Source: a virus
Virus record (IMG/VR): IMGVR_UViG_3300031993_000069
Length of the DNA stretch: 64,000 nucleotides
Strand: one strand, 5' to 3'
Shown here: positions 8,910-35,995 of the stretch, piece after piece
How positions within the stretch are numbered: the stretch's first letter is position 1
How the letters are laid out: every line of letters begins with the position of its first letter
Notes under the pieces: model-generated
What the model saw: the letters and a program-made list of their open reading frames with translations, nothing else
Databases searched by the model: none
Told to the model about the DNA's origin: nothing
Translations under genes and position numbers: made by a program

Positions 8910-8928
8910 AAAATATTTAAAAAAAGTA

Positions 8929-8957
8929 TTTACAACCTAAATAAATGGTTGTATAAT
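8929..8957 (+). promoter_or_regulatory. sigma70-like promoter
   Basis: TTTACA-N16-TGTATAATAT. Confidence 0.6.
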
Positions 8958-9267: not shown

Positions 9268-9272
9268 AATTT

Positions 9273-9359
9273 GGAGAGCTGTGATAATTGGTAGTCGGGC
9301 GGTCTTGAAAACCGTTGGGTCGAAAGGCCTTCAGGGTTCGAGTCCCTGGCTCTCCGCCA
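9273..9359 (+). tRNA. tRNA-Ser(TGA), class II
   Basis: Acceptor GGAGAGC/GCTCTCC, loop CTTGAAA, long variable arm, G73, CCA. Confidence 0.85.
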
Positions 9360-9467
9360 TTATCACTTATTAGTACCCACTTGCTCAATACTAGTAATGA
9401 GCAGACAAAAAAGAACGCCAGGTGAAATAAATTTTAAGGGTTTAAGTTCAGAGTAGCCACTTATCAT

Positions 9468-9544
9468 GGGTCACTAGCTCAATTGGTTAGAGCAGCCGGC
9501 TGTTAACCGGCAGGTTGTGGGTTCGAGTCCCTCGTGGCCCGCCA
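9468..9544 (+). tRNA. tRNA-Asn(GTT)
   Basis: Acceptor GGGTCAC/GTGGCCC, loop CTGTTAA, CCA. Confidence 0.8.
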
Positions 9545-9682
9545 TACGGTCCTTAGATATATTACCTTCTCGTGGTGGGACTGAACAGCTAAAGGATACT
9601 TGGAATTAATAGTATCGGCTAGACGAAACTTATATCGTAAAGACACGACTGGCCTGACGTGCGTAAATAACGGCCACCAAAT

Positions 9683-9757
9683 GGATCGCTCGTATATCGG
9701 TTAGTATACTTGGCTGTCTACCATGGGAGGAGGGTTCGATTCCCTCGCGGTCCGCCA
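9683..9757 (+). tRNA. tRNA-Asp(GTC)-like (atypical anticodon stem)
   Basis: Acceptor GGATCGC/GCGGTCC, loop CTGTCTA, T-arm GAGGGTTCGATTCCCTC, CCA. One mismatch in the anticodon stem and a pyrimidine at position 37. Confidence 0.5.
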
Positions 9758-9945
9758 TTGGAGCCTATACTTATTTCTAATTTGAAGATTCCAAGCCGCC
9801 ATTCGTAGGTTCGAATCCTACCATACCAGTATGGTATGTAGCCAAGCGGGAAGGCAGCGGCCTCAACAAAGCCAGTTAGGCCAAAATTAATTAAAACAAA
9901 TAAAGGAGATTAAGCTTATGTAATTATTTTAAAGGAGAAAAACTT

Positions 9946-10200
9946 ATGAATAGTTACTTTCGTAAAAAATACGAGAAACAAAAGCTTAAAAAACTAGCTG
10001 AAAAATGTGCTGGTTGGTGTGGCGGCAGCTATTATAGCGAAAGAAAAGGCCGTTACATTCGTTTTTGGAAAAGCCAAGGTAAAAATTCCTTCTGGGCTAC
10101 CGAAAAAAGATATGGCAGACGCATCTATCGAAGAAAGGCTAATAAAGTTGATTATAAATTAGCTAAAAAAGCCTTCGATCTTTGGTGGAATGTTTGGTAA
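9946..10200 (+). CDS. small basic hypothetical protein (84 aa)
   Basis: ORF with RBS AAAGGAG; Lys/Arg-rich. Confidence 0.5.
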   Translation: MNSYFRKKYEKQKLKKLAEKCAGWCGGSYYSERKGRYIRFWKSQGKNSFWATEKRYGRRIYRRKANKVDYKLAKKAFDLWWNVW

Positions 10201-10232
10201 AATGCTGTATAATATTAAGAGGTATACTCAGT

Positions 10233-11192
10233 ATGACTAAAATTATCCAAAATTTTTCAAGCAAAAAGCATATTAAAGCACTTCCTGTATTTGATATATT
10301 ACTTTGGAGTGCTGGATTACTTAATTTTAAAAAATTAGGCTATAAAACGAAGCTCTATTGTGAAAAATCAGATATTCCCTTCTTAAAGCGCTGGGGTTTA
10401 TATGATCTCTATGATGAAATTGATAGTAGATATCTAACAAAATTAGAGGAAGATGAGCGCTTTAAACAAATTGATGGTAATTGGTTTTGGTCTGTAAGAA
10501 AGCTATTTTGCATTGAACATGAATATAGTCTTAAATCAAAAGATAAATTCATGTATTTCGATACTGACATCTTACTTTATGACCATATTGAATTGCCAGA
10601 TTGGGCAAACCTATTCGTCTGGTCTATTGAAGAAGAGCCTATTTATATTCCTTGGGAATTCATGTCAGTTCCAGAAGGTTATAAAAAGCCTGAAGAATTC
10701 GATGATGACATGATTGCCTATAATTGTGGTATCTTAGCATTCAGCGATAAAGAAAAGTTTGAGCAATATTTTGCTGAATACTTGAAATTTACACAAGGAA
10801 ATCCCTGTAAATTATTACAAGGAGCTAATACTTCTGAGAAAACCCTCAAAAATATTTGGGCCTGTAATGCAGAGCAACGTATCCTATTAAATATTTCTCG
10901 TGCTGGAGACTGGAAAACTGTTATATTTGCAAATCCAGAGCAAGAAACCGGAATTCTTGGTTTCTATAAGGGCGGTAAACATTTCTATTTACTTCGTGCA
11001 ATTCTAAGAGATTTCACAGATGAAACTCAGGAGTCATTTAGAAACTTCTGGTTAGATATGTATAATGAAAATATCAAAGAATGCTTAGAGGTATTAGAAA
11101 AAGAAAATCCAGCACAATTAAATATATTCTTAGAAATTCCTTGGATTAAAAATTTATATAAATATAATTTCAAGGTAAAAGAATATAAGTAA
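10233..11192 (+). CDS. hypothetical protein (~320 aa)
   Basis: ATG at 10233 follows the TGTATAATAT promoter (10205) and RBS AAGAGG. The track ORF 10182 start lies upstream of the promoter. Confidence 0.6.
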   Translation: MTKIIQNFSSKKHIKALPVFDILLWSAGLLNFKKLGYKTKLYCEKSDIPFLKRWGLYDLYDEIDSRYLTKLEEDERFKQIDGNWFWSVRKLFCIEHEYSLKSKDKFMYFDTDILLYDHIELPDWANLFVWSIEEEPIYIPWEFMSVPEGYKKPEEFDDDMIAYNCGILAFSDKEKFEQYFAEYLKFTQGNPCKLLQGANTSEKTLKNIWACNAEQRILLNISRAGDWKTVIFANPEQETGILGFYKGGKHFYLLRAILRDFTDETQESFRNFWLDMYNENIKECLEVLEKENPAQLNIFLEIPWIKNLYKYNFKVKEYK

Positions 11193-11203
11193 AGGAGATA
11201 GCA

Positions 11204-11494
11204 ATGGGCGAAGATGTTTGGACATTGGGGCTATTTACCCTAAGAGACTACAACCATACAGAACCAGAATTAAAGGCTTGTGACCATTTATTCTGTATTA
11301 CTTATCAACAAGGGCAAGAGGAATATCCAGTAATGCTCTTGTGGAAACGCGGTAAACGATGTTTTACCAGGACCTGTAATGCTCCAGGTCTTAAATTACC
11401 AAAAGATATGCAAACAGCTATGTATCTATCAAGATTATCTACGGCTGCCATTCGTATCTTAAATGGTGAAAAGTTTAACCTATTTGATATATAA
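11204..11494 (+). CDS. hypothetical protein (96 aa)
   Basis: ORF with RBS AAGGAGATAGCA. Confidence 0.5.
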   Translation: MGEDVWTLGLFTLRDYNHTEPELKACDHLFCITYQQGQEEYPVMLLWKRGKRCFTRTCNAPGLKLPKDMQTAMYLSRLSTAAIRILNGEKFNLFDI

Positions 11495-11508
11495 AATAGG
11501 CACGACAT

Positions 11509-11594
11509 TGCGGTGGAGTGGCACGGACAACTATAAACCATTCTAGGCTCATAACCTAGCGATACCGGGTTCGACTCCCGAGCACCGCAACCAG
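11509..11594 (+). tRNA. tRNA-Met(CAT)-like with an enlarged D-region
   Basis: Acceptor TGCGGTG/CACCGCA, anticodon stem CTAGG/CCTAG with loop CTCATAA, T-loop TTCGACT, CCA. Length 85 nt with a 16-nt D-loop. Confidence 0.5.
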
Positions 11595-11875
11595 GAGTAG
11601 TTTTTGTTAGTTTTTGGAGCGCCAAGATCAAATACAAACTAACAGACAGTGTGACTATGTATATGATAGCACTATTCTAAAAATCGAAAGGATATACACC
11701 AGAAATTTGGTCGGCTAGTTGGCGTAAACCTAGCGATAGGAGCGTTTGCAACAGACCCTCAATAACTGCAGTGAGAGGGCAAGCACGAGCCTCCAAGAAG
11801 AGACTGCGATGGATGAAATATTCCTAGTGCACTTGGGCCGAGGACACAAGGTTCACTGGTTAAAGAACAAAACAC

Positions 11876-11951
11876 GGGGTATTGGTGCAGCGGTTAACAT
11901 GCCTCCCTGTCACGGAGGAGACCACGGGTTCGAATCCCGTATGCCCCGCCA
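11876..11951 (+). tRNA. tRNA-Asp(GTC)
   Basis: Acceptor GGGGTAT/ATGCCCC, anticodon stem CCTCC/GGAGG with loop CTGTCAC, CCA. Confidence 0.8.
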
Positions 11952-11980
11952 GTTCTTATTCAATTTATTTAGGAGGAGTT

Positions 11981-12283
11981 ATGATTATTACATTTAATGA
12001 TTTTTATGTCAATGTAACAGAAAATAATGTGCATATTCATGACTCTTACAAGATAAAAGGTAAGAAAAGAAAGCTTGAAATCATTAATGCAATCATAGCT
12101 TTCTGTCCAGAAGCTTTCAAAACTAGAACAATTAAGTCAGTTCTGAGAGAGTGGCGTGCACATAATGTCTTATATAAATTACATATTGCTAGAAATAGCA
12201 CAATGCATACAGACATTGAAGCACATCAAAAATTATTTTATAAAATTAGCTATTTACTTATTAATATATTCGGTATAGAATAA
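11981..12283 (+). CDS. hypothetical protein (100 aa)
   Basis: ATG with RBS AGGAGGAG 5 nt upstream, directly after tRNA-Asp. Confidence 0.5.
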   Translation: MIITFNDFYVNVTENNVHIHDSYKIKGKKRKLEIINAIIAFCPEAFKTRTIKSVLREWRAHNVLYKLHIARNSTMHTDIEAHQKLFYKISYLLINIFGIE

Positions 12284-12289
12284 GTATAT

Positions 12290-12365
12290 GGCTGGGTAGC
12301 CAAGTGGTTAAGGCGTCAAGCTCATACCTTGAAGATCGTCAGTTCAAATCTGACCCCAGCTACCA
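12290..12365 (+). tRNA. tRNA-Met(CAT)
   Basis: Acceptor GGCTGGG/CCCAGCT (G1·U72), loop CTCATAC, CCA. Confidence 0.7.
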
Positions 12366-12370
12366 GGTAT

Positions 12371-12445
12371 GCTCGCTTAATTCAGCGGGAGAAGGCAATC
12401 CTTACAAGATTGAGGTCGGCAGTTCGAATCTGTCAGCGAGCACCA
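12371..12445 (+). tRNA. tRNA-Val(TAC)
   Basis: Acceptor GCTCGCT/AGCGAGC, anticodon stem CAATC/GATTG with loop CTTACAA, CCA. Confidence 0.75.
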
Positions 12446-12644
12446 CGGCATGTATGCAATTATAAAACGCAGCCTACCGGTAAAGTAGGTGCTCTGAGTA
12501 GTCTCGAAGTAAGAGCTTTGTGGAATATTGCTAAATCGAGACTTTAGTAACAATATTCTAGGTGCAATTCCCACCATGCCAACCACCGCTCGGCTAGAGC
12601 ACAGCAAATCATACGGCTGTGTAGGAGAATCCCCGAGCAACCAC

Positions 12645-12718
12645 GCGGGAATAGGACAGTGGTAGTCCATCTGCTTGCCATGCAGACTACGCGGGTTCGA
12701 TTCCCGTTTCCCGCTCCA
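12645..12718 (+). tRNA. tRNA-Gly(GCC)
   Basis: Acceptor GCGGGAA/TTCCCGC, loop TTGCCAT, CCA. Confidence 0.8.
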
Positions 12719-12789
12719 CCAGGACAGATAAAGATTAGGTTCTTTATTAGGTTCTATGGCTGGACAAATCGATAAAACCAGCCACATTT

Positions 12790-12863
12790 GCGGGTATCGT
12801 CCAATGGTAGGGCCTCTGCCTTCCAAGCAGAAGATACCGGTTCGATCCCGGCTACCCGCTCCA
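12790..12863 (+). tRNA. tRNA-Gly(TCC)
   Basis: Acceptor GCGGGTA/TACCCGC, loop CTTCCAA, CCA. Confidence 0.8.
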
Positions 12864-12892
12864 TGCAGTATTTAGAAGGAGAAAATGCAATG

Positions 12893-12985
12893 AAAACACT
12901 TAAACTCAGTAAACTAAGTCGCCGTCGCTGTATAGCATGTTTTCGTTGTTGTCTTATAAATACCGCGTTAGCTCAATTGGATTAG
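12893..12985 (+). CDS. small Cys-rich basic peptide (30 aa) candidate
   Basis: RBS AGAAGGAGAAAATGCAATG. The peptide MKTLKLSKLSRRRCIACFRCC... has CxxC..CC spacing. Overlaps the 5' end of tRNA-Arg. Confidence 0.2.
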   Translation, partial: KTLKLSKLSRRRCIACFRCCLINTALAQLD

Positions 12986-13039
12986 AGCATATCGCTACGA
13001 ACGATAAGGTTGTGGGTTCGAGCCCTACACGCGGTGCCA
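12962..13039 (+). tRNA. tRNA-Arg(ACG)
   Basis: Acceptor ACCGCGT/ACGCGGT, loop CTACGAA, CCA. Confidence 0.8.
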
Positions 13040-13045
13040 GACATA

Positions 13046-13122
13046 GGATAGGTACCCAAGTGGCTTAAGGGAGCGGTCTGCAACACCGTTATTCGTGGGT
13101 TCGAATCCCATCCTATCCTCCA
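13046..13122 (+). tRNA. tRNA-Cys(GCA)
   Basis: Acceptor GGATAGG/CCTATCC, loop CTGCAAC, CCA. Confidence 0.8.
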
Positions 13123-13125
13123 AAT

Positions 13126-13200
13126 GGTCGTATAGCTCAACGGCAGAGCGGGCTCCTTATAAGGGCTAGGTTCCTGGTTCGAATCCAGGTGCGACCACCA
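13126..13200 (+). tRNA. tRNA-Ile(TAT) (AUA-decoding type)
   Basis: Acceptor GGTCGTA/TGCGACC, anticodon stem GGCTC/GGGCT (2 G·U) with loop CTTATAA, CCA. Confidence 0.55.
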
Positions 13201-13301
13201 AAACATGTTAATAGCACGCTCCTTTATGAAAAATCTTCAATATAAAGGAGTTTATTTATTTCAGCAAATATTGTATAATATAAAAGCAAGGAGCTATAAA
13301 A

Positions 13302-13820
13302 ATGATTGGTAAACACTTAAAAGACTATAAAAAAGCTTATAAAGCTGACCGCAGAGAAAACAGAAGAACTTGCGTTAAAAGAAATTCTGATTGGAAAAAA
13401 CGCTGGTTACCATTTATTAAGTATGATCATGATTTTGACGGCTTCTTCCTAATTGAACTTATGGTTCATAAATTACATATTATGCTTGATTACTATGACC
13501 ATGGCAAATATTGTATGCAAGTCGATGAGAGCCGACTTGAAATTGTTGAAAGCTTAAAAGAAGCTTGTAGACTTGGTGATTTAATCTTAGAGGATGATTT
13601 CAATGAACCTGCCTATAAAGTTATGATGGAACACCACCGTATGTGGACTGAGCCATGCAAAGACAATAGTCATCTTTGTGAAATTAAAATGGAATGGGAT
13701 AGCCCAGAGGCTAAGGCTGAATATGATAGGCTTGAAAAAGAAACTGATGCTCTCAGAGAAAAGACTATCGATGAATTCTTCGATTTTGTTAGAAAACATT
13801 ATCGTGAATGGTGGGATTAA
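13302..13820 (+). CDS. hypothetical protein (172 aa)
   Basis: ORF behind TGTATAATATAAAAGCAAGGAG. Confidence 0.6.
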   Translation: MIGKHLKDYKKAYKADRRENRRTCVKRNSDWKKRWLPFIKYDHDFDGFFLIELMVHKLHIMLDYYDHGKYCMQVDESRLEIVESLKEACRLGDLILEDDFNEPAYKVMMEHHRMWTEPCKDNSHLCEIKMEWDSPEAKAEYDRLEKETDALREKTIDEFFDFVRKHYREWWD

Positions 13821-13861
13821 TTAGTCCTCATCGAAAATGTCATTGAAAAAAACTAGACATT

Positions 13862-13952
13862 GGAGGAATACCCAAGAGGCCGAAGGGGACGGTTTGCTAA
13901 ACCGTTAGTGGTCGCAAGGCCAGCGAGGGTTCAAATCCCTCTTCCTCCGCCA
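13862..13952 (+). tRNA. tRNA-Ser(GCT), class II
   Basis: Acceptor GGAGGAA/TTCCTCC, anticodon stem ACGGT/ACCGT with loop TTGCTAA, long variable arm, G73, CCA. Confidence 0.8.
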
Positions 13953-13957
13953 TCTAT

Positions 13958-14034
13958 GCCCCGGTAACCGAATTGGCATAGGTACTAGACTTAGAATCTA
14001 GGTTCTGTGGGTTCAAGTCCCACTCGGGGTACCA
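13958..14034 (+). tRNA. class I (77 nt) tRNA with anticodon TAG (a Leu anticodon) and short variable loop
   Basis: Acceptor GCCCCGG/TCGGGGT (two G·U), anticodon stem CTAGA/TCTAG with loop CTTAGAA, 4-nt variable loop, T-loop GGTTCAAGTCC, A73, CCA. Confidence 0.55.
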
Positions 14035-14037
14035 TAT

Positions 14038-14415
14038 GGGCTCGTACTGGTTTCGATTGGTATTTGATGCTTATGACTACAGCAAGCTGATAACTTACTA
14101 TCAAACAAAAACAAACGACAAAACAAACTTTATGGCACACCTTGCCAACAACCAAATGGTTGCTGCTCGCGCCTAGTTCGCGAGAATGGTGATTGAGCTA
14201 GATAAGGTCGAATTTAGTTCTCTATTAATCAGACCTCGATGTTTATATCTAAGTAACTCCATATAAATGTTTAAATAAAGAGTAGACAACTGCTAGTATC
14301 GGATCGAAGGACTTGAGGTTCGCCGATAAAAAGAATATTTCTCAGGTTAAAGCTGTAATTAACGTTGTGGGGGTTTGGTATCAAGACAGGAGTTCGATTC
14401 TCCTCGGGTCCACCA
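14038..14415 (+). ncRNA. ssrA: tmRNA (transfer-messenger RNA)
   Basis: The 5' end GGGCTCGTACTGGTTTCGATTGG resembles the canonical tmRNA 5' end GGGGCUGAUUCUGGAUUCGAC. The 3' end AGGAGTTCGATTCTCCTCGGGTCCACCA pairs with the 5' acceptor and has G3·U70 and A73 (Ala identity). Length 378 nt. The internal frame ...NNQMVAARA-TAG is a candidate tag ORF. Confidence 0.75.
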
Positions 14416-14419
14416 TAAT

Positions 14420-14506
14420 GGGCGAGTGGCGTAACTGGTAGCCGCAATGGTCTAAGAAGCCATTGACCGAAAGGTCGTAGGGGTTCAAGTCCCCTCTCGC
14501 CCACCA
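14420..14506 (+). tRNA. tRNA-Leu(AAG), class II, A34
   Basis: Acceptor GGGCGAG/CTCGCCC, anticodon stem ATGGT/GCCAT with loop CTAAGAA, long variable arm TGACCGAAAGGTC, A73, CCA. Confidence 0.6.
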
Positions 14507-14561
14507 GAGTTATCTTTAATAATATTGTATAATATATTAGATATTGAAAGGAATTTATCTT

Positions 14562-14894
14562 ATGTATAGTTTACAAGAATTAATTGAACATGGATATGTC
14601 GATAGTATTACAACTGATGGAACACATCTTGGTGATGGTTATACTATTGTTGTTAAACTAAGCAGATATTCTATTGGTAAGATTACAATTAATGTTGGTA
14701 TTGATGAATACTTAGATGATGCTGTTACGCTTATTAATGGTATTATTGATATTCAAGAAAGCTTAAATAAAGAAGCTAAACCGGAAGAAAAGCCAACTAT
14801 TAGACATGTAACTGATCCAGATGAAATAAAGGAAATACTTTCTGGAACAGCAATTAAAGACACAAAAATTGAACCAGAGGATTATGCGGAATAA
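14562..14894 (+). CDS. hypothetical protein (110 aa)
   Basis: ATG behind promoter TGTATAATAT (14525) and RBS GAAAGGAA. Confidence 0.55.
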   Translation: MYSLQELIEHGYVDSITTDGTHLGDGYTIVVKLSRYSIGKITINVGIDEYLDDAVTLINGIIDIQESLNKEAKPEEKPTIRHVTDPDEIKEILSGTAIKDTKIEPEDYAE

Positions 14895-15073
14895 TGTATC
14901 AAATTATTAAAGACGATAAATATTATCTATATAATGATATAGGCGAAGAATTAATGACAATTACCTTCGACAATTCATTACCAGGAGACCAAGTAGTTAT
15001 TACTACACAGGATGAAGTTTATGCTGGTCCAATAAAATTTGTTACTTTTTCTGGAGATATTCCAAAAGAGTAG
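14894..15073 (+). CDS. small hypothetical protein (59 aa)
   Basis: ATG overlaps the upstream stop (ATAATG). Coding-like composition. Confidence 0.35.
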   Translation: MYQIIKDDKYYLYNDIGEELMTITFDNSLPGDQVVITTQDEVYAGPIKFVTFSGDIPKE

Positions 15074-15089
15074 CTTGTATATTATTAAT

Positions 15090-15186
15090 AGGGGCTTAGT
15101 GTAACGGCAGCACAACGGTCTTCAAAACCGCAAAGCGGGGGCCTCCAAAACCCCAGGTGCGGGTTCGAATCCTGCAGCCCCTGCCA
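15090..15186 (+). tRNA. Trp-like opal-suppressor tRNA, anticodon TCA, with an unusual 25-nt extra arm
   Basis: Acceptor AGGGGCT/AGCCCCT, G73, CCA. The D-arm and anticodon stem ACGGT/ACCGC are nearly identical to tRNA-Trp(CCA) at 8744, but the loop is CTTCAAA. A 25-nt insertion AAAGCGGGGGCCTCCAAAACCCCAG between the anticodon and T arms forms a hairpin. Own promoter TTGTATATTATTAAT sits immediately upstream. Confidence 0.7.
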
Positions 15187-15252
15187 TATAGAGCCTGTAC
15201 TTATTTCTATCACAAACCTTGAAATTTGCACGCAGTAGTCAGGCCATTTATT

Positions 15253-15438
15253 TTTATGAAATTTAAGTATAGAATTATTTGGGTTAATACAGTTAAAGGA
15301 AAACAAGAATATGTTGATATCGATGACCAGCATATTGTATTGTTTGTCGCTAAGAAAAAAGTTAGCGATGGAATGCAAGGAGTCATCATTCAAGTTTCTG
15401 GTGATCCATCTATGACTGACCCAGATGATGCTAGCTGA
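15253..15438 (+). CDS. hypothetical protein (61 aa)
   Basis: ORF downstream of motif A. Confidence 0.3.
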   Translation, partial: FMKFKYRIIWVNTVKGKQEYVDIDDQHIVLFVAKKKVSDGMQGVIIQVSGDPSMTDPDDAS

Positions 15439-15504
15439 CCGGCTATTGATGCGAATGCTTCTGAAGCTGAAAATAAAATAATTTAAAAAAATTAAAAAAA
15501 ACTA

Positions 15505-15534
15505 TTTACAAAAAATAAAAAAGTATTGTATAAT
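15505..15534 (+). promoter_or_regulatory. sigma70-like promoter
   Basis: TTTACA-N16-TGTATAATAAT. Confidence 0.6.
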
Positions 15535-15539
15535 AATAT

Positions 15540-16180
15540 TGTGAGTGTTAAGCAAGCACTCCAAAAGTGTTCTTTGAAAAATTTTAATTGGCACCTCGAT
15601 GAAGACATCTTGCACGATGGTCGAGGCTCGGCTCTAAGATGATGATAACTGGTGGGATACTGCTGGGTAAGTTGAAACTTCCAAAGTGATGAAGAAGTAA
15701 ACCTATTTAATTAGGATTGAGTCGATGGCGCAATTTGTTGCAGCGATTTAGATGAAAACACATATGCGGGTCCGACAAGAAGCTCTGGCCGTAAGGTCAT
15801 CTCACCTGTGGTATTAAGCCTGAGAAACTTAATGCCCGGTAACTCAAAGGAAGGACGCGACTTGATGTCAAGAAATTGACTATAACTGGTAATGTGTTTG
15901 TACAAGTAGCCGTATGTCGTACTACAAAGCTTTAACAGGATATTTATTAAATACTTTGCTGAAGCTCGGTGAAAGTTGATAGGTAAAGGTCCTATCTGTG
16001 GAAGTCGTAAGACCATTGGAGAAGTTATAGGGTAGCTCCCTGTGACTCAGCCTCCCGTGAGCATCCATTAATAAAGTCAAGCAATAAGGGTTGTATGGTG
16101 AAGACCGGAAATTAAAATTTTTTAAAGAGCACTTAAAAGTATTGCTAAATTAAGTAGACTTAAAAAGTCAGAAGGAGAAA
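15540..16180 (+). ncRNA. unidentified ~640-nt ORF-free structured RNA candidate
   Basis: Lies between a strong promoter and a small ORF. GC-enriched relative to the genome, with no ORF above 60 aa on the + strand. No RNase P P4 motif (GGAAAGUCC) seen. Confidence 0.3.
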
Positions 16181-16184
16181 AAGC

Positions 16185-16274
16185 ATGTTAAACTTAGTTA
16201 CTGTTAACGTTAGACCTACAGCAACAGCCAAACCAGCGTTGGTAAGTTTTGATATGCTCATGACCTCTGATAGA
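16185..16274 (+). CDS. small peptide (29 aa) candidate
   Basis: RBS AAGGAGAAAAAGC then ATG; followed by a perfect terminator. Confidence 0.25.
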
Positions 16275-16302
16275 TAAGTTAACTTAAAAACTTAACTAAG
16301 AT

Positions 16303-16335
16303 ACCGCAGTTGTGATGAGCAGCTGCGGTTTTTTT
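16303..16335 (+). terminator. rho-independent terminator
   Basis: CCGCAGTTGTGATGAGCAGCTGCGG followed by TTTTTTT. Confidence 0.85.
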
Positions 16336-16506
16336 AAGAAAAAATAACTAGCAATGTAAAACTCATAAGAGAGACGTGACGAAACCAAGGACTTCTGTGC
16401 CTTGGTCCCAAAAGTCTAAGGGATGAAATGAAGCCAGCAGTGCACAAAAAACTTGTTGCCTGATAAAAAAAGAGGCTGGTCAGGCAGAAGAAGAACGAAA
16501 GCTAGT

Positions 16507-16590
16507 TAATTATATGGGCCGATAGTTTAATTGGGAAAATACCCGCCCTGCAAGCGGGAGTTAGGGGTTCAAATCCCCACGTGTCCACCA
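16507..16590 (+). pseudogene. tRNA-like element (Ala-TGC-like anticodon arm, T-arm and CCA) with a non-pairing acceptor stem
   Basis: CCCGC-CCTGCAA-GCGGG anticodon-like arm, GGGGTTCAAATCCCC T-arm and a 3' CCA. The 5' GGGCCGA does not pair with the 3' CGTGTCC. Confidence 0.3.
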
Positions 16591-16595
16591 TTTAT

Positions 16596-16671
16596 GGGGG
16601 TGTAGCTCATCTGGGAGAGCACTTGATTAGCATTCAAGAGGTAGCGAGTTCGATCCTCGTCACTTCCACCA
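16596..16671 (+). tRNA. tRNA-Ala(AGC), A34
   Basis: Acceptor GGGGGTG/CACTTCC with G3·U70 and A73. Anticodon stem CTTGA/TCAAG with loop TTAGCAT. CCA. Confidence 0.6.
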
Positions 16672-16735
16672 GACAGAACCTGTGCTTATTTCTAACGTTA
16701 AATTTGGGATTTAAAAAGTAGCAGCCAGGTCAATT

Positions 16736-16811
16736 GCCGCCTTAGCTCAACTGGCAGAGCAACCGCCTTGTAAGCGGTAGGTTACTGGTTCGATTCCGGT
16801 AGGCGGCACCA
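16736..16811 (+). tRNA. tRNA-Thr(TGT)
   Basis: Acceptor GCCGCCT/AGGCGGC, loop CTTGTAA, CCA. Confidence 0.8.
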
Positions 16812-16815
16812 CTTT

Positions 16816-16892
16816 GGGGGTGTAGCTCAATTGGGAGAGCGCTCGCCTTGCAAGCGAGGGGTTGCGGGTTCAAGTCCCGTCACGTTCCACCA
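16816..16892 (+). tRNA. tRNA-Ala(TGC) with a 1-nt bulge in the 3' acceptor strand
   Basis: Acceptor GGGGGTG with G3·U70, anticodon stem CTCGC/GCGAG with loop CTTGCAA. The 3' strand CACGTTCC carries one extra nt. CCA. Confidence 0.6.
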
Positions 16893-17049
16893 CTAAAATG
16901 TAAGCCTATACTTATTTCTCCTCCTAAATTGTTGGGGGCCTTAGTTAGGCAATCAAAAAATTCATGCCACGGAAGGAAAACCGTATAAACCCTTACAGCT
17001 TCGTTCTTAGCCAGACGTAGACTAAGATAAAGTTAAGCTGATGTAATTT

Positions 17050-17126
17050 CGGGAGTTGGCTCAGCTTGGTAGAGCACTTGATTTGGGATCAAGGGGTCAA
17101 GGGTTCGAATCCCTTACTCCCGACCA
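17050..17126 (+). tRNA. tRNA-Pro(TGG)
   Basis: Acceptor CGGGAGT/ACTCCCG, loop TTTGGGA, CCA. Confidence 0.8.
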
Positions 17127-17251
17127 TTAGAGAACCTGTACTTATTTCTTAGCTTTGGGAGCCGCTGTTTGTTGGTTCGAGTCCAGCCTTCCCGACCATT
17201 ATCGGGAAGTAGGCAAATTGGTAAAGCCGGCGTTTATTAGTCAGGTCATAT

Positions 17252-17327
17252 GCGCTTTTAGCTCAGTTGGGAGAGCGTCTGCTTGACGTGCAGAAGGTCG
17301 TAGGTTCGAGCCCTGCAAGGCGCACCA
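17252..17327 (+). tRNA. tRNA-Val(GAC)
   Basis: Acceptor GCGCTTT/AAGGCGC, anticodon stem TCTGC/GCAGA with loop TTGACGT, CCA. Confidence 0.75.
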
Positions 17328-17331
17328 TTAT

Positions 17332-17408
17332 GCTCCTCTAGCCCAACTGGCAGAGGCAATGAGCTCAAACCTCATTCAGTATCGGTTCGAATCCGATGGG
17401 GAGTACCA
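17332..17408 (+). tRNA. class I (77 nt) tRNA with anticodon CAA (a Leu anticodon) and short variable loop
   Basis: Acceptor GCTCCTC/GGGGAGT, anticodon stem ATGAG/CTCAT with loop CTCAAAC, 5-nt variable loop, A73, CCA. Confidence 0.5.
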
Positions 17409-17427
17409 AAAAATTATTAAAAAACTG

Positions 17428-17456
17428 TTTACAACGCAGAATAAATGTTGTATAAT
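17428..17456 (+). promoter_or_regulatory. sigma70-like promoter
   Basis: TTTACA-N14-TTGTATAAT. Confidence 0.55.
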
Positions 17457-17566
17457 TATGAATGTAAGGTCGCGATGTGTGAGCATTAAACTATCGGCCC
17501 CTCACCTCCGAAAACCGTAGGCCGAGTCGGACCTTATATATAGATTGTTCAAAAAGGAGAAGAGTT

Positions 17567-17647
17567 ATGATGACAATGAACAAGAAAAACATCAAGAATA
17601 GAAAAACTAGAAAAACTAGTTCATTTAGTCATGGCTTAATTCAGTAA
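17567..17647 (+). CDS. small basic peptide (26 aa) candidate
   Basis: RBS AAAAGGAGAAGAG then ATGATG; followed by a terminator hairpin and T-run at ~17678-17712. Confidence 0.25.
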   Translation: MMTMNKKNIKNRKTRKTSSFSHGLIQ

Positions 17648-17772
17648 AACACTAATAATACGTTAACGTAAGATAGAGTGCCGAGTGGTTAAGCCGCCCG
17701 GCATTTTTTCTGGGATTACGTTAGCGCAACGGACAGGGACGACATAAGAGCGTGCTTTTCCAGAAATCACAT

Positions 17773-17849
17773 ACCTCCGTAGCTCAACTGGACAGAGCAT
17801 CGGTCTTCTAAACCGCAGGTTGGGCGTTCGAGTCGCCCCGGGGGTGCCA
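17773..17849 (+). tRNA. tRNA-Arg(TCT)
   Basis: Acceptor ACCTCCG/CGGGGGT, loop CTTCTAA, CCA. Confidence 0.75.
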
Positions 17850-17853
17850 AATC

Positions 17854-17928
17854 GCGTCCATAGCCAAGTGGTATGGCAATCGGCTTTTAACCGATGTACC
17901 GAGGGTTCGAATCCTTCTGGGCGCACCA
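17854..17928 (+). tRNA. tRNA-Lys(TTT)
   Basis: Acceptor GCGTCCA/TGGGCGC, loop CTTTTAA, CCA. Confidence 0.8.
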
Positions 17929-17933
17929 CATAT

Positions 17934-18010
17934 GCCTCCATAGCAAAATTGGCTAATGCACCTGACTCTTAATCAGGGGATTCTGGGTTCGAGTCCCAGT
18001 GGGGGTACCA
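17934..18010 (+). tRNA. tRNA-Lys(CTT)
   Basis: Acceptor GCCTCCA/TGGGGGT, loop CTCTTAA, CCA. Confidence 0.75.
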
Positions 18011-18012
18011 AT

Positions 18013-18088
18013 GCGCCGGTAGCTCAGCCGGTAGAGCACGTGACTTTTAATCACGGGGTCCAGAGTTCGAACCTCTGCCGGCGCACCA
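18013..18088 (+). tRNA. tRNA-Lys(TTT), second copy
   Basis: Acceptor GCGCCGG/CCGGCGC, loop CTTTTAA, CCA. Confidence 0.75.
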
Positions 18089-18090
18089 AT

Positions 18091-18165
18091 GCTGATTTAG
18101 TTTAATTGGTAAAATAATTCTCTCGTAAAGAATAGTAGTGTGTTCGAAACATACAATCAGCACCA
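18091..18165 (+). tRNA. tRNA-Thr(CGT), AT-rich
   Basis: Acceptor GCTGATT/AATCAGC, anticodon stem ATTCT/AGAAT with loop CTCGTAA, T-arm GTGTGTTCGAAACATAC, CCA. Confidence 0.7.
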
Positions 18166-18261
18166 TTAGAGCCTATGCTTATTTCTAGCTCAATGAGAGC
18201 GTTTGACATTTAATCAAAAGGTATAGCTAGGCCATTCTTGATAAATCTACTGTATAATATA

Positions 18262-18500
18262 ATATGGTTGCGATGAATTTTGCAGTTTCGACCCATGTGC
18301 ACAGAAATAGAAACTGCCTATAGGTTAATGTTGACCATAGTTATTGGTGCAGAGTACGTAATCTGCGAGGTAAACTCCGGTGTATGTTCATTCGCCGACC
18401 TATGAAGCTAAAAAATGAACGGAGATAGCGTATAAAAATGATTTATGAAAAGTACGTAACGCCCATGAGGAGAGGCCTCATGCTTCAATAAAAAACAAAA
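18262..18500 (+). ncRNA. unidentified structured RNA candidate (~240 nt) behind the 18250 promoter
   Basis: ORF-free. Ends in the hairpin CATGAGG-AGAG-GCCTCATG immediately before the next tRNA. Confidence 0.3.
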
Positions 18501-18503
18501 CTT

Positions 18504-18579
18504 GCCGGCTTAGCTCATCTGGTAGAGCAATTCACTAGTAATGAATAGGTGGTCAGTTCGAGTCTGGCAGCCGGCACCA
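18504..18579 (+). tRNA. tRNA-Thr(AGT), A34
   Basis: Acceptor GCCGGCT/AGCCGGC, anticodon stem ATTCA/TGAAT with loop CTAGTAA, CCA. Confidence 0.6.
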
Positions 18580-21687: not shown

Positions 21688-22218
21688 ATGAAACAAACAT
21701 TAGTCGTTAATCTTTTAGGCGGTCCTGGTGTTGGTAAATCTACATTAACCGCAGCTGTATTTGCAAAGTTAAAAGATGCTGACGTCGATTGTGAAATGGC
21801 ATCTGAATTTGCAAAAGAATTGGTTTGGGAGCAAAGAAACGAAACATTTAAAGATGAGTTATATATCTTTGCAAAGCAAGCCCATAGATTATTTAGATTA
21901 AATGGAAAGGTTGATGTAGTTGTTACAGACAGACCATTAATTCTTACTTGTTTCTATGCTCAAAATGATAAAGCATTAAGTAAATTCTGTTTAGATCGCT
22001 TTGAACAATATAATAACTTAAATTATTTATTGGTTAGAGAAAAGACTTATAATCCAAATGGTAGAAATCAAACAGAAGATGAAGCTAGACAAATTGATAG
22101 TGCAACTAGATATATGCTAGCAAGTTATGATATTGATTATAAAGAAGTTCCAGGAAATATGGAAACTGCAGACATTATTGTTAATGATGTTTTAAAGCTA
22201 TTGGAGGAAAGAAAATAA
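21688..22218 (+). CDS. P-loop NTPase / nucleotide kinase-like protein
   Basis: Walker A LLGGPGVGKSTLT at the N-terminus; 176 aa. Confidence 0.6.
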   Translation: MKQTLVVNLLGGPGVGKSTLTAAVFAKLKDADVDCEMASEFAKELVWEQRNETFKDELYIFAKQAHRLFRLNGKVDVVVTDRPLILTCFYAQNDKALSKFCLDRFEQYNNLNYLLVREKTYNPNGRNQTEDEARQIDSATRYMLASYDIDYKEVPGNMETADIIVNDVLKLLEERK

Positions 22219-23100: not shown

Positions 23101-24147
23101 ATGCTAGATTACCAAAACGTTAAAATCCCAGAAGAAATTATTATCGTTGAAAAGCAAATTCAATATAGCTGGTATCAATCAAAGGCCAATGGTATGCACC
23201 AAGGCTATGTTGTTGATGCCAATAATAAAAAGATGCTTGAAACTGCTTTAAACTGGGCAAAAGGAACCGCCTATGATGAAAGCCTTTTAGAAGGTAAAAA
23301 TTGGTGGGATTGCTCTGAAGAAATTAAAAAAGCTTATAGAGCATCAGCCAAAGAGGTCGAAGGTATTCAACACAAATATACTAATGGTAATTTTAAATTA
23401 AGAATTATTGACTCAGCAGATAATAGTAGCCAAGGTGGAAAATTATCTTTCTGGAATTGTGGAATTACTTGTCCAGATGGTTTAGAATTATTAGTTGGTA
23501 TCAATGCTGATATCTTACTTGAATTATTAATTACAAATACTTTTGTTAATGGCGTTTGTCCAACAAAAGTTTGGCTTGGTCGTGTTAAGGGAACTCAGGT
23601 TGGAGCTTTCTCTGAAAATATGGAGTTATTCGAACAAGCTAAAAAAGATGAAGCTACAAGACGTGCTAATGCTGCAGCTGGAAGTAATTATAAACCAGGA
23701 GCATTAGTCAGCAATTTAACCAATACAGAAATTTATATTGGCACATTATATACGGCCGCTGATTTTGATGATAGTGGTTGGAGACGTTATACACTAACTG
23801 TTTATAAAAAACCGCAGGTTAGACATTTCTTCTTAGGATATGACCCCGAAAAAGGAACTATTAGTAGATATGTCTATGGCTCAGATATTAAAAAGACAAA
23901 GCCAAAAAGAGTTATTAATGGCCAAAAAGATATTGGTATGACTCCACATGCTTATTTATCAAAGATTATTGATAGCTATTACAAAGAAGGCAATGTCAGT
24001 GATTATTCTAAGTTCTGCTATGACAAATTATTATTAGGCTATGCAGATACCCCAGAAGAAGCATTAGCAAAGCAAGAAGAATTTATTGCTTTGATTAAAA
24101 AACAATATAGTCCTCGTGACTATTTAGATATTAAATACGAAGATTAA
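23101..24147 (+). CDS. hypothetical protein (348 aa)
   Basis: ATG abuts the upstream stop. Confidence 0.6.
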   Translation: MLDYQNVKIPEEIIIVEKQIQYSWYQSKANGMHQGYVVDANNKKMLETALNWAKGTAYDESLLEGKNWWDCSEEIKKAYRASAKEVEGIQHKYTNGNFKLRIIDSADNSSQGGKLSFWNCGITCPDGLELLVGINADILLELLITNTFVNGVCPTKVWLGRVKGTQVGAFSENMELFEQAKKDEATRRANAAAGSNYKPGALVSNLTNTEIYIGTLYTAADFDDSGWRRYTLTVYKKPQVRHFFLGYDPEKGTISRYVYGSDIKKTKPKRVINGQKDIGMTPHAYLSKIIDSYYKEGNVSDYSKFCYDKLLLGYADTPEEALAKQEEFIALIKKQYSPRDYLDIKYED

Positions 24148-24158: not shown

Positions 24159-25109
24159 ATGATTAGAGATGCACTCGGTGACAGAATGAAAGGTTATGAA
24201 GCTGTCACAAAAACTACATTAGTAAGCAGAATGCCAGTCATTATTAGATTAGATGGCTGTCATTTCCATACTTTTTGTCGTGGATTTAAAAAGCCATTCG
24301 ATCCTTTAATGGTTAAGACCATGCAAGCAACCATGAAATATCTCTGTGAGAATATTCAAGGCTGTGTTTTAGGCTATACTCAAAGTGATGAAATCACTCT
24401 TGTTTTAGTCGATTATAGAAAGCATAATTCCTCTGCTTGGTTTGATAATGAAGTCCTTAAAATTACGTCAGTCTCTGCTTCTTTAGCAACATTTGCATTC
24501 AATAAATTCTTCAACGAATTCTATCTTGAACAACTTGCTGAAAAGGGTGAAGCTGATGAATATGATTTAGTCTATGATAGAAAACGTAGAATTGGTGCAT
24601 ACTTCGATGCAAGAGTTTTCAATGTCCCAAGAGAAGATGTTACAAACTGTGTTCTTTGGAGACAATTAGACGCTGAAAGAAACTCAATCAATTCTCTTGC
24701 ACAATCTTTATTCAGTCATAAGTCTCTTCAAGGTTTAAATCTTAAAGCTACTATGACTAAGATCGAAACAGAAAAAAGCATTGTCTGGGGTGATTTACCA
24801 ACAACTCAAAAACGTGGTTCTTGCTGCATCAAAGATGTTTGGTATACTTTAGATGATGGTCAAAATGTTAAGAATAAGTCACACATTTGTTATAAAGATA
24901 AAACAGGTGAATTCTATTTTGATGGTGATGGTTTCTACTTCTATGCTACTGGCTTAAAAGATAACCTTAATTGTGCTTTTTCTGCCCAAGGTGTTAAGAT
25001 GAATGTTAAAGAGCATTCTGCTTGGAGAATTGATAATGAAATTCCAAGATTTATCGATGAAGGCAGAGAATATATCGAAAAGTTAATCTATCCAGAAGAC
25101 GAGGAATAA
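24159..25109 (+). CDS. Thg1-like protein (tRNA-His guanylyltransferase / 3'-5' nucleotidyl-transferase family)
   Basis: VIIRLDGCHFHTF...FKKPFDP...GYTQSDEITLVL matches the Thg1/TLP core R.DG..F..F.....KP.D...YGQSDE.S.V. Confidence 0.7.
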   Translation: MIRDALGDRMKGYEAVTKTTLVSRMPVIIRLDGCHFHTFCRGFKKPFDPLMVKTMQATMKYLCENIQGCVLGYTQSDEITLVLVDYRKHNSSAWFDNEVLKITSVSASLATFAFNKFFNEFYLEQLAEKGEADEYDLVYDRKRRIGAYFDARVFNVPREDVTNCVLWRQLDAERNSINSLAQSLFSHKSLQGLNLKATMTKIETEKSIVWGDLPTTQKRGSCCIKDVWYTLDDGQNVKNKSHICYKDKTGEFYFDGDGFYFYATGLKDNLNCAFSAQGVKMNVKEHSAWRIDNEIPRFIDEGREYIEKLIYPEDEE

Positions 25110-26168: not shown

Positions 26169-26371
26169 TGGAAAGATTACAAGTTAAATTCTGCAAAGGC
26201 GAAAAAGAATTAAATGAATTTTTAATGACATTAAATATTGGACATGTTGGTTATCCACAACTTCAATCAATTAACTATGTCGCTGAAATTCAAGGCAAAG
26301 GTTCTGATGTTGAAATCAATATGGGTAGCTCAGTCATTGCTGCCGTTCAATACTTTGTAGAGGTAGAATAA
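26168..26371 (+). CDS. hypothetical protein (67 aa)
   Basis: ATG overlaps the upstream stop. Confidence 0.45.
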   Translation: MERLQVKFCKGEKELNEFLMTLNIGHVGYPQLQSINYVAEIQGKGSDVEINMGSSVIAAVQYFVEVE

Positions 26372-26667
26372 TGGACCCAATTTTCAATGAATCCGAAAGA
26401 ATTGAAAGATTAATCAAGGCAAGCAAAAAGTCTCCTGAAAAAGCCATTTTAAAGCTTGTAGAGGAGACTGGTGAGCTAGTCAGTGCCATCGAAGCCTTGA
26501 CTAGTTATAAACATGGAGATTATACTCATGTTCAGGAAGAGGCAATTGATGTCCTTCAATGTGCAATGAGCATATATTTCTTAATACAAAACGAAAAACC
26601 ATTTGATGGCGAAGCTATTATGAAAGCTAAGGATGACAAGTGGGAAAATAAGTATTTAAACAAATAA
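26371..26667 (+). CDS. MazG-like nucleotide pyrophosphohydrolase domain protein (98 aa)
   Basis: EETGELVSAIE...EEAIDVLQCAMSIYFL matches the MazG EExxE/D...DxL pattern. Confidence 0.5.
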   Translation: MDPIFNESERIERLIKASKKSPEKAILKLVEETGELVSAIEALTSYKHGDYTHVQEEAIDVLQCAMSIYFLIQNEKPFDGEAIMKAKDDKWENKYLNK

Positions 26668-34295: not shown

Positions 34296-35243
34296 ATGAA
34301 ATACTTCGTTGTATCAGACATTCACAGCTTTGACATTCAGCTAAAAAATGCGCTAAAAGCTGCTGGTTTTGAAAAAACTAACAAAGACCATACTTTAATC
34401 GTTTGCGGCGATATTTTTGATCGTGGTGCCGGTACAATGGAATTATTCAAGTTTTTATACTCAATTCCAAAGAAACGTTGCATCCTAATTAAGGGCAATC
34501 ACGAAGACTTATATTTAGAGCTTCTTAAAAAGAAATTCCCAGATGGATATGACTTCTCAAACCATACCGTAGATACTTTCTGTCACATTGCGGGTTATAG
34601 CCCAGAAATCATGACTGCTAAGTATTGGTATAAGCTTGGTGAAGAAAATCCATATGAGAGAATGCAACAAACCTGGCAAGAAATTCTAAAAGAAGTTAGA
34701 GAAAATAAGATTACAGGCTGGCTAAAAAGCAATCAATGGAGAAACTTCTATGAATTAGATAAATATATCTTCGTTCATAGCTTTATTCCATTAATTAATC
34801 TTGACGGCCAACCAAGCTGGTATATCAACAATAGAAAATTCCATTACTTTGCCAATTGGCGTACTGATGCTACTGAATTAGAGTGGTATGATGCCAGATG
34901 GGGATGTCCATATCAAAATTATCTTGACGGCTACTTCAAACACGAAGAGGAAGAAGGCAAGGTATTAGTTTGCGGACACTGGGTTGTAACTGACTTTAGA
35001 CAAGCCATAAACAACAGAATGACCGACAATACTGATATTTATTACTCAGAACATTTAATTGGCCTAGATTGTGGCGTTTGGCACTATAAAGGCACAAGCG
35101 GATATTATCATCCACAAAATGTTCTTGTAATTGATGACTCAGACTTCGATACTTGTTATGACCAACGTGGTAATAAGTTAGAATACGAGAAATCAGTTCC
35201 AATTATTCGAACAGTTACTCCAAAAGATGGAGAAGAATTCTAA
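34296..35243 (+). CDS. calcineurin-like metallophosphoesterase (PPP-family phosphatase-like)
   Basis: Motifs VSDIHS, GDIFDRG, GNHE. Confidence 0.85.
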   Translation: MKYFVVSDIHSFDIQLKNALKAAGFEKTNKDHTLIVCGDIFDRGAGTMELFKFLYSIPKKRCILIKGNHEDLYLELLKKKFPDGYDFSNHTVDTFCHIAGYSPEIMTAKYWYKLGEENPYERMQQTWQEILKEVRENKITGWLKSNQWRNFYELDKYIFVHSFIPLINLDGQPSWYINNRKFHYFANWRTDATELEWYDARWGCPYQNYLDGYFKHEEEEGKVLVCGHWVVTDFRQAINNRMTDNTDIYYSEHLIGLDCGVWHYKGTSGYYHPQNVLVIDDSDFDTCYDQRGNKLEYEKSVPIIRTVTPKDGEEF

Positions 35244-35275
35244 AAAAAAGGGTTTACAAACCCTCTTTTTTATTG
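35243..35275 (+). terminator. rho-independent terminator
   Basis: AAAAAAAAGGGTTTACAAACCCTCTTTTTTATT. Confidence 0.85.
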
Positions 35276-35299
35276 TATATTATATATGAGGTATTAAAG

Positions 35300-35995
35300 A
35301 TGATTAGCATTTTATACGACATTTTCAAACATTGGAGTGCTAAAGGATCAGTCTATATTATTAGCGATCCTCATTTTCTTGATGCCGAAAGCTTTGAATT
35401 CAGAACTGCCCAAGGGAAACTTCCAAAAGATGTTACTACTATTGAGGCTTTGGCTGAATATCAAATCAAAGAAATCAATAAGATTTGTCATAAAAATGAT
35501 ACATTAATTTGCTTAGGAGACGTTGGTGACATCGAATGTGTCAAGAAATTAAAAGCTGGACATAAGGTTTTAATTTTAGGAAACCACGATAGGGGCAAAG
35601 ACTATTACATGAGAAAAATCAATTATATTATGGACAATGCTAAAGGCACTGTTGAGATTGATTTGAACATGTATAGAGTTGAAGATAACCATTTATTCGA
35701 TGAAGTCTATGCTGGACCGCTCATGATTTCTGATAAGATTTTATTGTCTCATGAACCAATTATCCCATGTCCTGACTATATTGTTAACTTATGTGGACAT
35801 GTTCATGCAAATGGACACAAATTCAAGGTCAAAAAGCATCAATATTACAACTTCTGTGCTGAAGCAATTCATTATAAACCTGTTTCATTGGCTGAACTAA
35901 TCAAGCATGGGTTACTAAGTGGGGTCAAAGACATTCACGAGGTTACGGTTGCTGGCGCAGTTGCTAGAAAACAACACAAAACTAAGGCTGAGTAA
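35300..35995 (+). CDS. calcineurin-like metallophosphoesterase (second copy)
   Basis: Motifs ISDPHF, LGDVGD, LGNHD. Promoter TTGTATATTATAT at 35276. Confidence 0.8.
   Translation: MISILYDIFKHWSAKGSVYIISDPHFLDAESFEFRTAQGKLPKDVTTIEALAEYQIKEINKICHKNDTLICLGDVGDIECVKKLKAGHKVLILGNHDRGKDYYMRKINYIMDNAKGTVEIDLNMYRVEDNHLFDEVYAGPLMISDKILLSHEPIIPCPDYIVNLCGHVHANGHKFKVKKHQYYNFCAEAIHYKPVSLAELIKHGLLSGVKDIHEVTVAGAVARKQHKTKAE

Follow-up and report, generated by a model that had tools for sequence, protein, structure and literature searches.

A bacterial-type Thg1-like protein in a phage with a large tRNA array, a probable enzyme of templated tRNA 5'-end repair

The Thg1-like protein (TLP) of Bacillus thuringiensis, BtTLP, carries out Watson-Crick templated 3'-5' addition on 5'-truncated tRNAs of several identities. 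It prefers such truncated tRNAs of several kinds, and a role in tRNA quality control has been proposed for it (PMC3701042). Among phages, the TLP gene of Bacillus phage Bc431v3 was remarked on as unusual in 2013 (PMC3601020). A 2021 comparison of jumbo phages counted Thg1 among the sporadically occurring components of RNA repair, with the task of restoring 5' nucleotides, and grouped it with CCA-adding enzymes, RNA ligases, polynucleotide kinases and two HAD families (PMC7824862). In this study, we analyzed a TLP gene in a 64,000-nucleotide (nt) stretch of viral DNA, the IMG/VR virus record IMGVR_UViG_3300031993_000069; the whole stretch is hereafter called the window. The gene (24159..25109, + strand) is a single open reading frame (ORF) running from ATG to stop and encodes 316 amino acids (aa). 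An original prediction, made from the letters of the window, had taken its product for a Thg1-like protein that, together with other genes nearby, may form a tRNA maturation and repair toolkit defending the phage tRNAs. We report that the product is of the bacterial TLP type and probably repairs tRNA 5' ends by templated addition, as part of an RNA-repair set whose genes are dispersed over the phage genome.

Assignment to the family came from several comparisons. The Pfam search that the original prediction had suggested as a check matched the Thg1 profile PF04446 over positions 2-130 of 130 (E 1.6e-30; 106.1 bits, gathering score 29.2), and PHROG 4717, 'tRNA-His guanylyltransferase', was matched at 1.8e-81. 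The top sequence match among solved structures was BtTLP (PDB 4kgk/4kgm; 1.1e-58): residues 4-228 of the phage TLP align to chain positions 2-207 of BtTLP, and its C-terminal part aligns also to positions 214-238. No Thg1 C-terminal model was listed in the Pfam scan of the TLP, but the C-terminal half still aligns to BtTLP. Matches to eukaryotic Thg1 lay between 7e-8 and 1.6e-4 (human, 7.2e-8; Candida, 6.4e-6). Judged by these alignments, the phage TLP groups with the template-dependent TLPs and not with eukaryotic Thg1, and the 316-aa ORF is assigned as a bacterial-type TLP, a member of the 3'-to-5' nucleotidyltransferase family.

The residues expected for catalysis are intact. One of the two core motifs quoted in the original prediction, R.DG..FH.F.....KP.D, is present exactly (R30-L-D32-G-C-H-F-H-T-F-C-R-G-F-K-K45-P-F-D48), while the other, Y.QSDE.S.V, is retained save for a T in place of S (Y73-T-Q-S76-D77-E78-I-T-L-V). 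The predicted catalytic residues are E14, R30, D32, K45, S76, D77 and E78; all are invariant in the 21 homologues aligned, except that K45 is nearly so. E12, R28, D30, S74, D75 and E76 are the catalytic and nucleotide-binding residues of BtTLP (PMC3701042), and in the TLP-BtTLP alignment they correspond in this order to E14, R30, D32, S76, D77 and E78 of the phage protein. The three conserved carboxylates (D29, D76 and E77 of hTHG1; D30, D75 and E76 of BtTLP) are thus all present, as are the triphosphate-binding R, K and S.

The structural model that had also been suggested as a check agrees with the sequence matches. The AlphaFold model of the TLP (pLDDT 87.2, pTM 0.85) has the Thg1 polymerase-like palm fold: all of its 32 top PDB matches are Thg1 or TLP chains (E 5e-24 to 5e-11), and it superposes best on BtTLP 4kgm, with a target-normalised TM of 0.84-0.87. 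The model also shows some 57 inserted aa (about residues 229-285), which separate the conserved 'KRGSCCIK' strand from the 'W.ID..IP.F' strand and consist of extra beta strands predicted with good confidence. The closest relatives from metagenomes, 67-89% identical across the alignment, keep this insertion; in other homologues it is shortened or lacking even though the rest is 64-75% identical. This pattern indicates a lineage-specific elaboration rather than a core feature. The presence of the insertion did not correlate with that of the family of the uncharacterised 348-aa protein encoded beside the TLP gene (see below), as two phages (L009 and L029) lack the insertion yet have the neighbor.

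Given these assignments, we consider it probable that the phage TLP restores tRNA 5' ends under the direction of a template. By analogy with BtTLP, it would bind tRNAs that lack one or a few nucleotides from the 5' strand of the acceptor stem, activate the 5'-monophosphate using ATP or GTP, and add the missing nucleotides singly with the intact 3' strand serving as Watson-Crick template. D32 and D77 would hold the two Mg2+ ions. Refilling G-1 of tRNA-His opposite C73 would be one special case of this reaction. The TLP may accordingly be pictured as the 5'-end healing arm of a set that protects the translation RNAs of the phage (38 tRNA-like genes and a transfer-messenger RNA (tmRNA)) and possibly host tRNAs against nucleases of the host. 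The other members of the set would be a Pnkp-type kinase/phosphoesterase/ligase and a HAD phosphatase of the 'Swiss Army Knife' (SAK) type, and probably also a P-loop protein and the 348-aa protein.

The likely substrates are encoded in a tRNA array (7350..18579, + strand) that comprises 36 tRNAs, a tRNA-His, a degenerate tRNA-like element, a tmRNA and a ROOL RNA. The 'massive tRNA set' of the original prediction is borne out: ARAGORN with default settings found 36 tRNAs and the tmRNA between 7350 and 18579, and Rfam added the degenerate tRNA (16516-16587), the ROOL RNA and a c-di-GMP-I riboswitch. With tRNA-His counted, the array spans all 20 amino-acid specificities. According to the ARAGORN bracket strings, acceptor stems are fully paired in essentially all of the tRNAs and CCA is encoded in almost all.

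The main rival explanation, implied by the common label 'tRNA-His guanylyltransferase' that PHROG 4717 and many records carry, is that the TLP is dedicated to tRNA-His maturation, adding G-1 to phage or host tRNA-His for charging by histidyl-tRNA synthetase. The phage does possess a tRNA-His, as had been claimed, and its C73 means that G-1 addition would be templated. This tRNA-His(GTG) (7904..7980, + strand) sits within the 86 nt that separate tRNA-Tyr from tRNA-Phe. Neither default ARAGORN nor Rfam run on the whole window reported it, and a reading in which the phage has no tRNA-His was therefore entertained; it was given up because relaxed ARAGORN (7905-7980) and a local Rfam search (37.3 bits, cut-off 29) both detect the gene. 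The low scores are probably due to an unusual core, with G8 for U8 and C for U55 in the T loop. It is conceivable that this odd core disturbs normal processing, which would favor a dedicated maturation enzyme. However, the acceptor stem (GTGTATG/CATGCAC) is preceded by an encoded G-1 at 7904 that pairs with C73 at 7977, followed by CCA at 7978-7980, so there is no missing G-1 to be supplied. Bacterial RNase P retains G-1 of tRNA-His when G-1 pairs with C73, and the TLP is thus not needed for tRNA-His identity.

Two further observations speak against a dedicated tRNA-His enzyme. We took a census of the neighbors, clustered into families, at 85 TLP loci of large phages, which form 46 TLP groups at 90% identity. 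Only one of the 85 loci (L011) has a tRNA-His within 10 kb, and that tRNA-His likewise encodes G-1, C73 and CCA. In addition, the phage TLP falls in the branch of BtTLP, which is not specific for tRNA-His. We therefore regard dedicated tRNA-His maturation as unlikely. An IMG/VR search with the exact anticodon arm of the phage tRNA-His returned unrelated tRNA-His genes only and no homologues. The degenerate element at 16516-16587 had also been suspected of being a tRNA-His, and it turned out to be Ala/Cys-like.

TLPs perform 5' editing in some mitochondria, and the array, which is very large and has its tRNAs packed only 2-5 nt apart, might suggest a similar use here, namely the programmed replacement of encoded mismatches at tRNA positions 1-3 as in amoebozoan mitochondria. 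We checked all acceptor stems and found no mismatch at these positions; positions 1-3 are paired in every default-called tRNA. The two stems that depart from full pairing do so elsewhere, by a bulged G in one tRNA-Ala (16816-16888) and at the stem base of the degenerate element (16516-16587). Editing of the mitochondrial type would not be needed for such a set, and this explanation, largely refuted by the stems, is extremely improbable. Taken together, the encoded G-1 and the lack of 5' mismatches make general templated 5'-end repair likelier than either dedicated G-1 addition or 5' editing.

A role outside tRNA was also weighed, in which the TLP extends or repairs the 5' ends of the tmRNA, the ROOL RNA or mRNAs, or performs other palm-domain nucleotide chemistry. 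Both non-tRNA candidates lie inside the array. The tmRNA (14038-14415, + strand; tag peptide DKTNFMAHLANNQMVAARA) has a tRNA-like acceptor stem and stands between tRNA-Leu genes from which it is separated by 3 and 4 nt, and the ROOL RNA (15571-16127, + strand; RF03087, 213 bits) is full length (model positions 1-574 of 574) and lies mid-array. The 57-aa insertion, to which no function is assigned, and the remote palm-domain relatives found by Foldseek would also fit such a role; the latter (GGDEF domains, adenylyl cyclases, cyclic UMP synthase and type III CRISPR effector chains) appear only at E of 0.05 or worse. On the other side, the match to BtTLP spans nearly the whole BtTLP chain, and many close homologues do without the insertion, which is hence not core to function. 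The neighbors of TLP genes in other phages (CCA-adding enzyme, Tpt1 and aminoacyl-tRNA synthetase) point to tRNA end repair. A role outside tRNA is, in our estimation, quite improbable.

Several other features of the array were noted. The tRNA-Ala(TGC)-like element at 16516-16587 (+ strand; Rfam 40.6 bits), missed by default ARAGORN, is degenerate, with C33 and three mismatches at the acceptor-stem base. The tRNA-Ala(TGC) at 16816-16888 (+ strand) carries its extra bulged G in the 3' acceptor strand when compared with tRNA-Ala(AGC). A 97-nt tRNA at 15090-15186 (+ strand), labeled 'SeC' by ARAGORN, has a long variable arm and the anticodon TCA, which reads UGA; its acceptor stem and G73 resemble those of the phage tRNA-Trp. 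TGA is the stop codon of 7 of the 57 + strand ORFs, and this tRNA may be a suppressor. Besides Arg-ACG, four tRNAs (Ser-AGA, Leu-AAG, Ala-AGC and Thr-AGT) have A34 at the wobble position; they were called by default ARAGORN on the + strand at 8822-8909, 14420-14506, 16596-16671 and 18504-18579. A34 in so many tRNAs is unusual for bacterial-type sets and suggests a wider use of inosine.

Other RNA-repair genes are present in this phage. A stand-alone HAD phosphatase of the SAK RNA-repair family (8077..8505, + strand; HAD_SAK_2 PF18143 at 1.9e-25, PHROG 1818 at 4.5e-26) is encoded inside the tRNA array, and the part that this family takes in phage RNA repair has been reviewed (PMC7824862). When IMG/VR relatives of the HAD gene were searched for a homologous tRNA array, a single locus was obtained, which has no tRNAs. 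The left edge of the window (1..70, + strand) holds the 3' end of a Pnkp-type gene, its last 23 codons corresponding to positions 2-70; the remainder lies just outside. Its 758-aa product is seen whole on a metagenomic contig (L094), of which positions 2847-6903 are 99.975% identical to window positions 1-4058 and which reaches 2.8 kb further left. The protein, encoded at 640-2916 of this contig, combines an AAA_33 kinase, a Metallophos domain and RNA_lig_T4_1 (a T4-Rnl1-type ligase), and its residues 475-692 match the fungal tRNA ligase PDB 6n0v at 2.8e-9. Given the near identity of the contig and the end of the gene at base 70, the phage possesses a healing-and-sealing enzyme whose gene is some 24 kb away from that of the TLP. 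The RNA ligase that the original prediction had proposed to look for elsewhere in the genome is thereby found, and the same genome has enzymes for end healing as well as for sealing, in the form of HAD_SAK_2 and the Pnkp-type protein. Inside the window, blastp and phmmer searches with phage queries detected no Rnl-type RNA ligase, Pnkp or CCA-adding enzyme.

The proposed toolkit had also included a SAM methyltransferase and two metallophosphoesterases. These genes and the HAD gene all exist, at distances of 5 to 16 kb from the TLP gene, which none of them adjoins. The methyltransferase (18793-19602) was considered as a Hen1, but it matched generic class-I models only, and a PDB sequence search to E 0.01 gave no Hen1 chain, leaving this identity unsupported. 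The metallophosphoesterases are encoded about 10 kb downstream of the TLP gene. The first (34296..35243, + strand; Pfam Metallophos 4.6e-11) is lambda-phosphatase/ApaH-like and matches phrog_8238 'RNA ligase', a 737-position profile, at 9.4e-12 over positions 173-267, the phosphoesterase segment; it is possibly an RNA 3'-end healing enzyme, the link being weak. The second (35273..35995, + strand; Pfam Metallophos 1.7e-06, phrog_547 1.9e-28) is distantly related to a phosphoesterase encoded near a TLP gene in another phage (L018 16452-17057; E 9e-6, 31% identity), a member of the phosphoesterase family that the census found beside TLP genes in 9 of the 46 groups. The methyltransferase and the two metallophosphoesterases thus have no specific link to the TLP, the ties of the latter two being weak. 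The idea of a tRNA repair toolkit is partly supported, by the SAK-type HAD and the Pnkp-type ligase, and is in line with repair neighbors in other phages, but does not extend to these three genes.

The TLP gene is one of ten + strand genes that abut or overlap in a single block (21688-26667), which opens with a P-loop protein and closes with a MazG-like pyrophosphohydrolase. The P-loop protein (21688..22218, + strand; 176 aa) is AAA_28/thymidylate-kinase-like (Pfam AAA_28 5e-14, PHROG 2107 1.5e-18) and, on these profile matches, is a candidate kinase, copies of which accompany the TLP gene in other phages (see below); against solved structures it gave P-loop-level matches only, with E above 0.2. 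The uncharacterised 348-aa protein (23101..24147, + strand), a recurring TLP neighbor, is encoded directly upstream of the TLP gene with a 12-nt gap. The last gene of the block (26371..26667, + strand) encodes the MazG-like NTP pyrophosphohydrolase (98 aa; Pfam MazG 3.7e-06). A strong hairpin (21282-21316) stands ahead of the block, and no + strand terminator-like site was found in the block or beyond it before the riboswitch terminator at 26823-26851. Apart from that hairpin and that terminator, the counts from the promoter and terminator scan were no better than those from shuffled sequences.

Across phages, the TLP family is large: it counts more than 8000 proteins at E below 1e-10, with members in 164 deposited phage genomes and in no fewer than 591 contigs of IMG/VR. 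In the census, the most widespread neighbor was the CCA-adding enzyme (12 of the 46 groups; median distance 2.6 kb), followed by a phosphoesterase (9/46), an RNA-ligase-like protein with a weak Pfam match (9/46) and Pnkp (5/46); replication and nucleotide-metabolism genes were also recurrent. Linkage to repair genes is seen at four individual loci. In a 239-kb relative (L004; TLP 89% identical), the TLP gene is directly followed by AAA_28 (86%), and then come a 395-aa homologue of the 348-aa protein (40%), an RNA ligase (PF09414) and a MazG homologue (48%). A second phage (L009; TLP 70% identical) encodes, in this order, an AAA_33 kinase, a Tpt1/KptA 2'-phosphotransferase, the TLP, a 348-aa homologue and a class-I Trp/Tyr-type aminoacyl-tRNA synthetase (12531-13517; PF00579, 8.4e-66), the last being two genes from the TLP; it also has an AAA_28 copy (40% identical) near the TLP gene. 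In a third (L029; TLP 47% identical), a 348-aa homologue and then an RNA ligase come after the TLP. On a fragment of a human-gut phage (L001; TLP 50% identical) there is, about 1.6 kb upstream of the TLP, a 304-aa Pnkp-like ORF with P-loop kinase and HAD motifs recognized by eye, beside which lies a 93-aa ORF that is MazG-like by eye only. The 348-aa protein, along with a small P-loop protein, stays beside the TLP in four phage lineages, and this is the one fresh lead from the analysis. The association of TLP genes with RNA repair is real, but it is confined to a minority of lineages: it is seen in the four loci above and, for the CCA-adding enzyme, in the 12 groups, and not in most lineages. 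In cultured Bacillus and Aeromonas phages, the annotated TLP neighbors are mostly hypothetical proteins.

Some of these results weigh against the proposal that the TLP is a tRNA 5'-end repair enzyme acting within a repair set. Most TLP neighbors across phages are replication or nucleotide-metabolism genes or uncharacterised ones, the repair link reaching 12 of the 46 groups at best. The repair genes of the window are scattered over more than 35 kb and form no operon, and the CCA-adding enzyme was among the functions that blastp and phmmer with phage queries failed to find there. Our search of the literature for biochemistry of phage TLPs found no measured activity, and no host nuclease acting in phage defence by shortening the 5' ends of tRNAs is named in PMC7824862 or PMC3701042.

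The surroundings of the main loci contain further features. Downstream of the TLP block lies the c-di-GMP-I riboswitch (26753-26851, + strand; 52.4 bits, cut-off 35), which ends in the terminator-like hairpin at 26823-26851. Just beyond it, the product of an ORF at 26863-27537 (+ strand, 224 aa) has a signal-peptide-like N-terminus, and that of the ORF at 27554-28360 (+ strand, 268 aa) contains 'RGDNNPVSDG', resembling SipW-type signal peptidases; a Pfam scan of these two ORFs returned nothing. No near-identical DNA to positions 20000-32000 was found among deposited phages. Toward the left edge, a PhoH-like ATPase is encoded at 4288-5196. Between it and the Pnkp-type gene, a 671-aa ORF (1422-3437, + strand) partially matches an MXAN_6230/SCO0854-family RING-domain protein (NCBIfam 2.5e-23), with a score well under the cut-off of that family, and also a PHROG of unknown function. 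The region 38487-58305 (+ strand) encodes very large proteins with collagen triple-helix repeats and CBM_5_12, YadA-head and endosialidase-chaperone domains, which are probably tail fibres; in the 239-kb relative their homologues flank the TLP gene on the opposite side, indicating that the genomes are rearranged. Contigs of the same phage (L090/L091), which extend the window by about 6 kb past its right edge, carry a folate/thymidylate cluster with thymidylate synthase, DHFR, formate-tetrahydrofolate ligase, methylene-THF dehydrogenase/cyclohydrolase and dUTPase.

By itself the TLP matters little, as such proteins are common in large phages and have already been read as tRNA 5'-end repair enzymes. 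The locus is of value as a clean example of a phage that carries and maintains its own translation RNAs, its kit consisting of tRNAs of all 20 specificities, the tmRNA, the ROOL RNA, the Pnkp-type ligase, the repair HAD phosphatase and the TLP. The conserved 348-aa protein beside the TLP offers a handle on the natural substrate and on the damage that is answered, and the finding would gain interest if the TLP, the 348-aa protein and the P-loop protein prove to be a functional module.

Compared with known systems, the phage locus shares its strategy with bacterial Pnkp/Hen1 and with T4 Pnk/Rnl, in which ends are healed and the tRNA is restored; it has a protein of Pnkp architecture and a repair-type HAD. 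Unlike Pnkp/Hen1, it has no detected Hen1-like methyltransferase, and whereas both of these systems reseal breaks in the anticodon loop, the TLP would rebuild the 5' terminus. Eukaryotic Thg1 (human 3OTB, Candida 3WBZ and yeast 5XOX) has the same fold and the same two-metal carboxylates, but it is only a distant match, is specific for tRNA-His and adds G-1 opposite A73 without a template. The phage genes of PHROG 4717, including Bacillus phage Bc431v3 gp143 and those of Shewanella phage 1/4 and Aeromonas phage 4L372D, belong to the same family as the TLP. Matches to the 164 deposited phage records have 45-52% identity, and for many of these an annotation already exists. The copies in cultured phages differ in being about 205-245 aa long, covering the first ~70% of the phage TLP and lacking the insertion. 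BtTLP remains the closest described relative, being the best match in sequence and structure with the same catalytic set; the phage TLP differs from it by some 57 extra residues (229-285), a longer helical segment around 120-146, its phage origin and its gene context. The interpretation given in the original prediction restates the published view of phage Thg1 and fits the locus reasonably well. Thg1-like genes of phages have been widely annotated, and reviewed, before, and what is new here is one more member of the family, in this phage.

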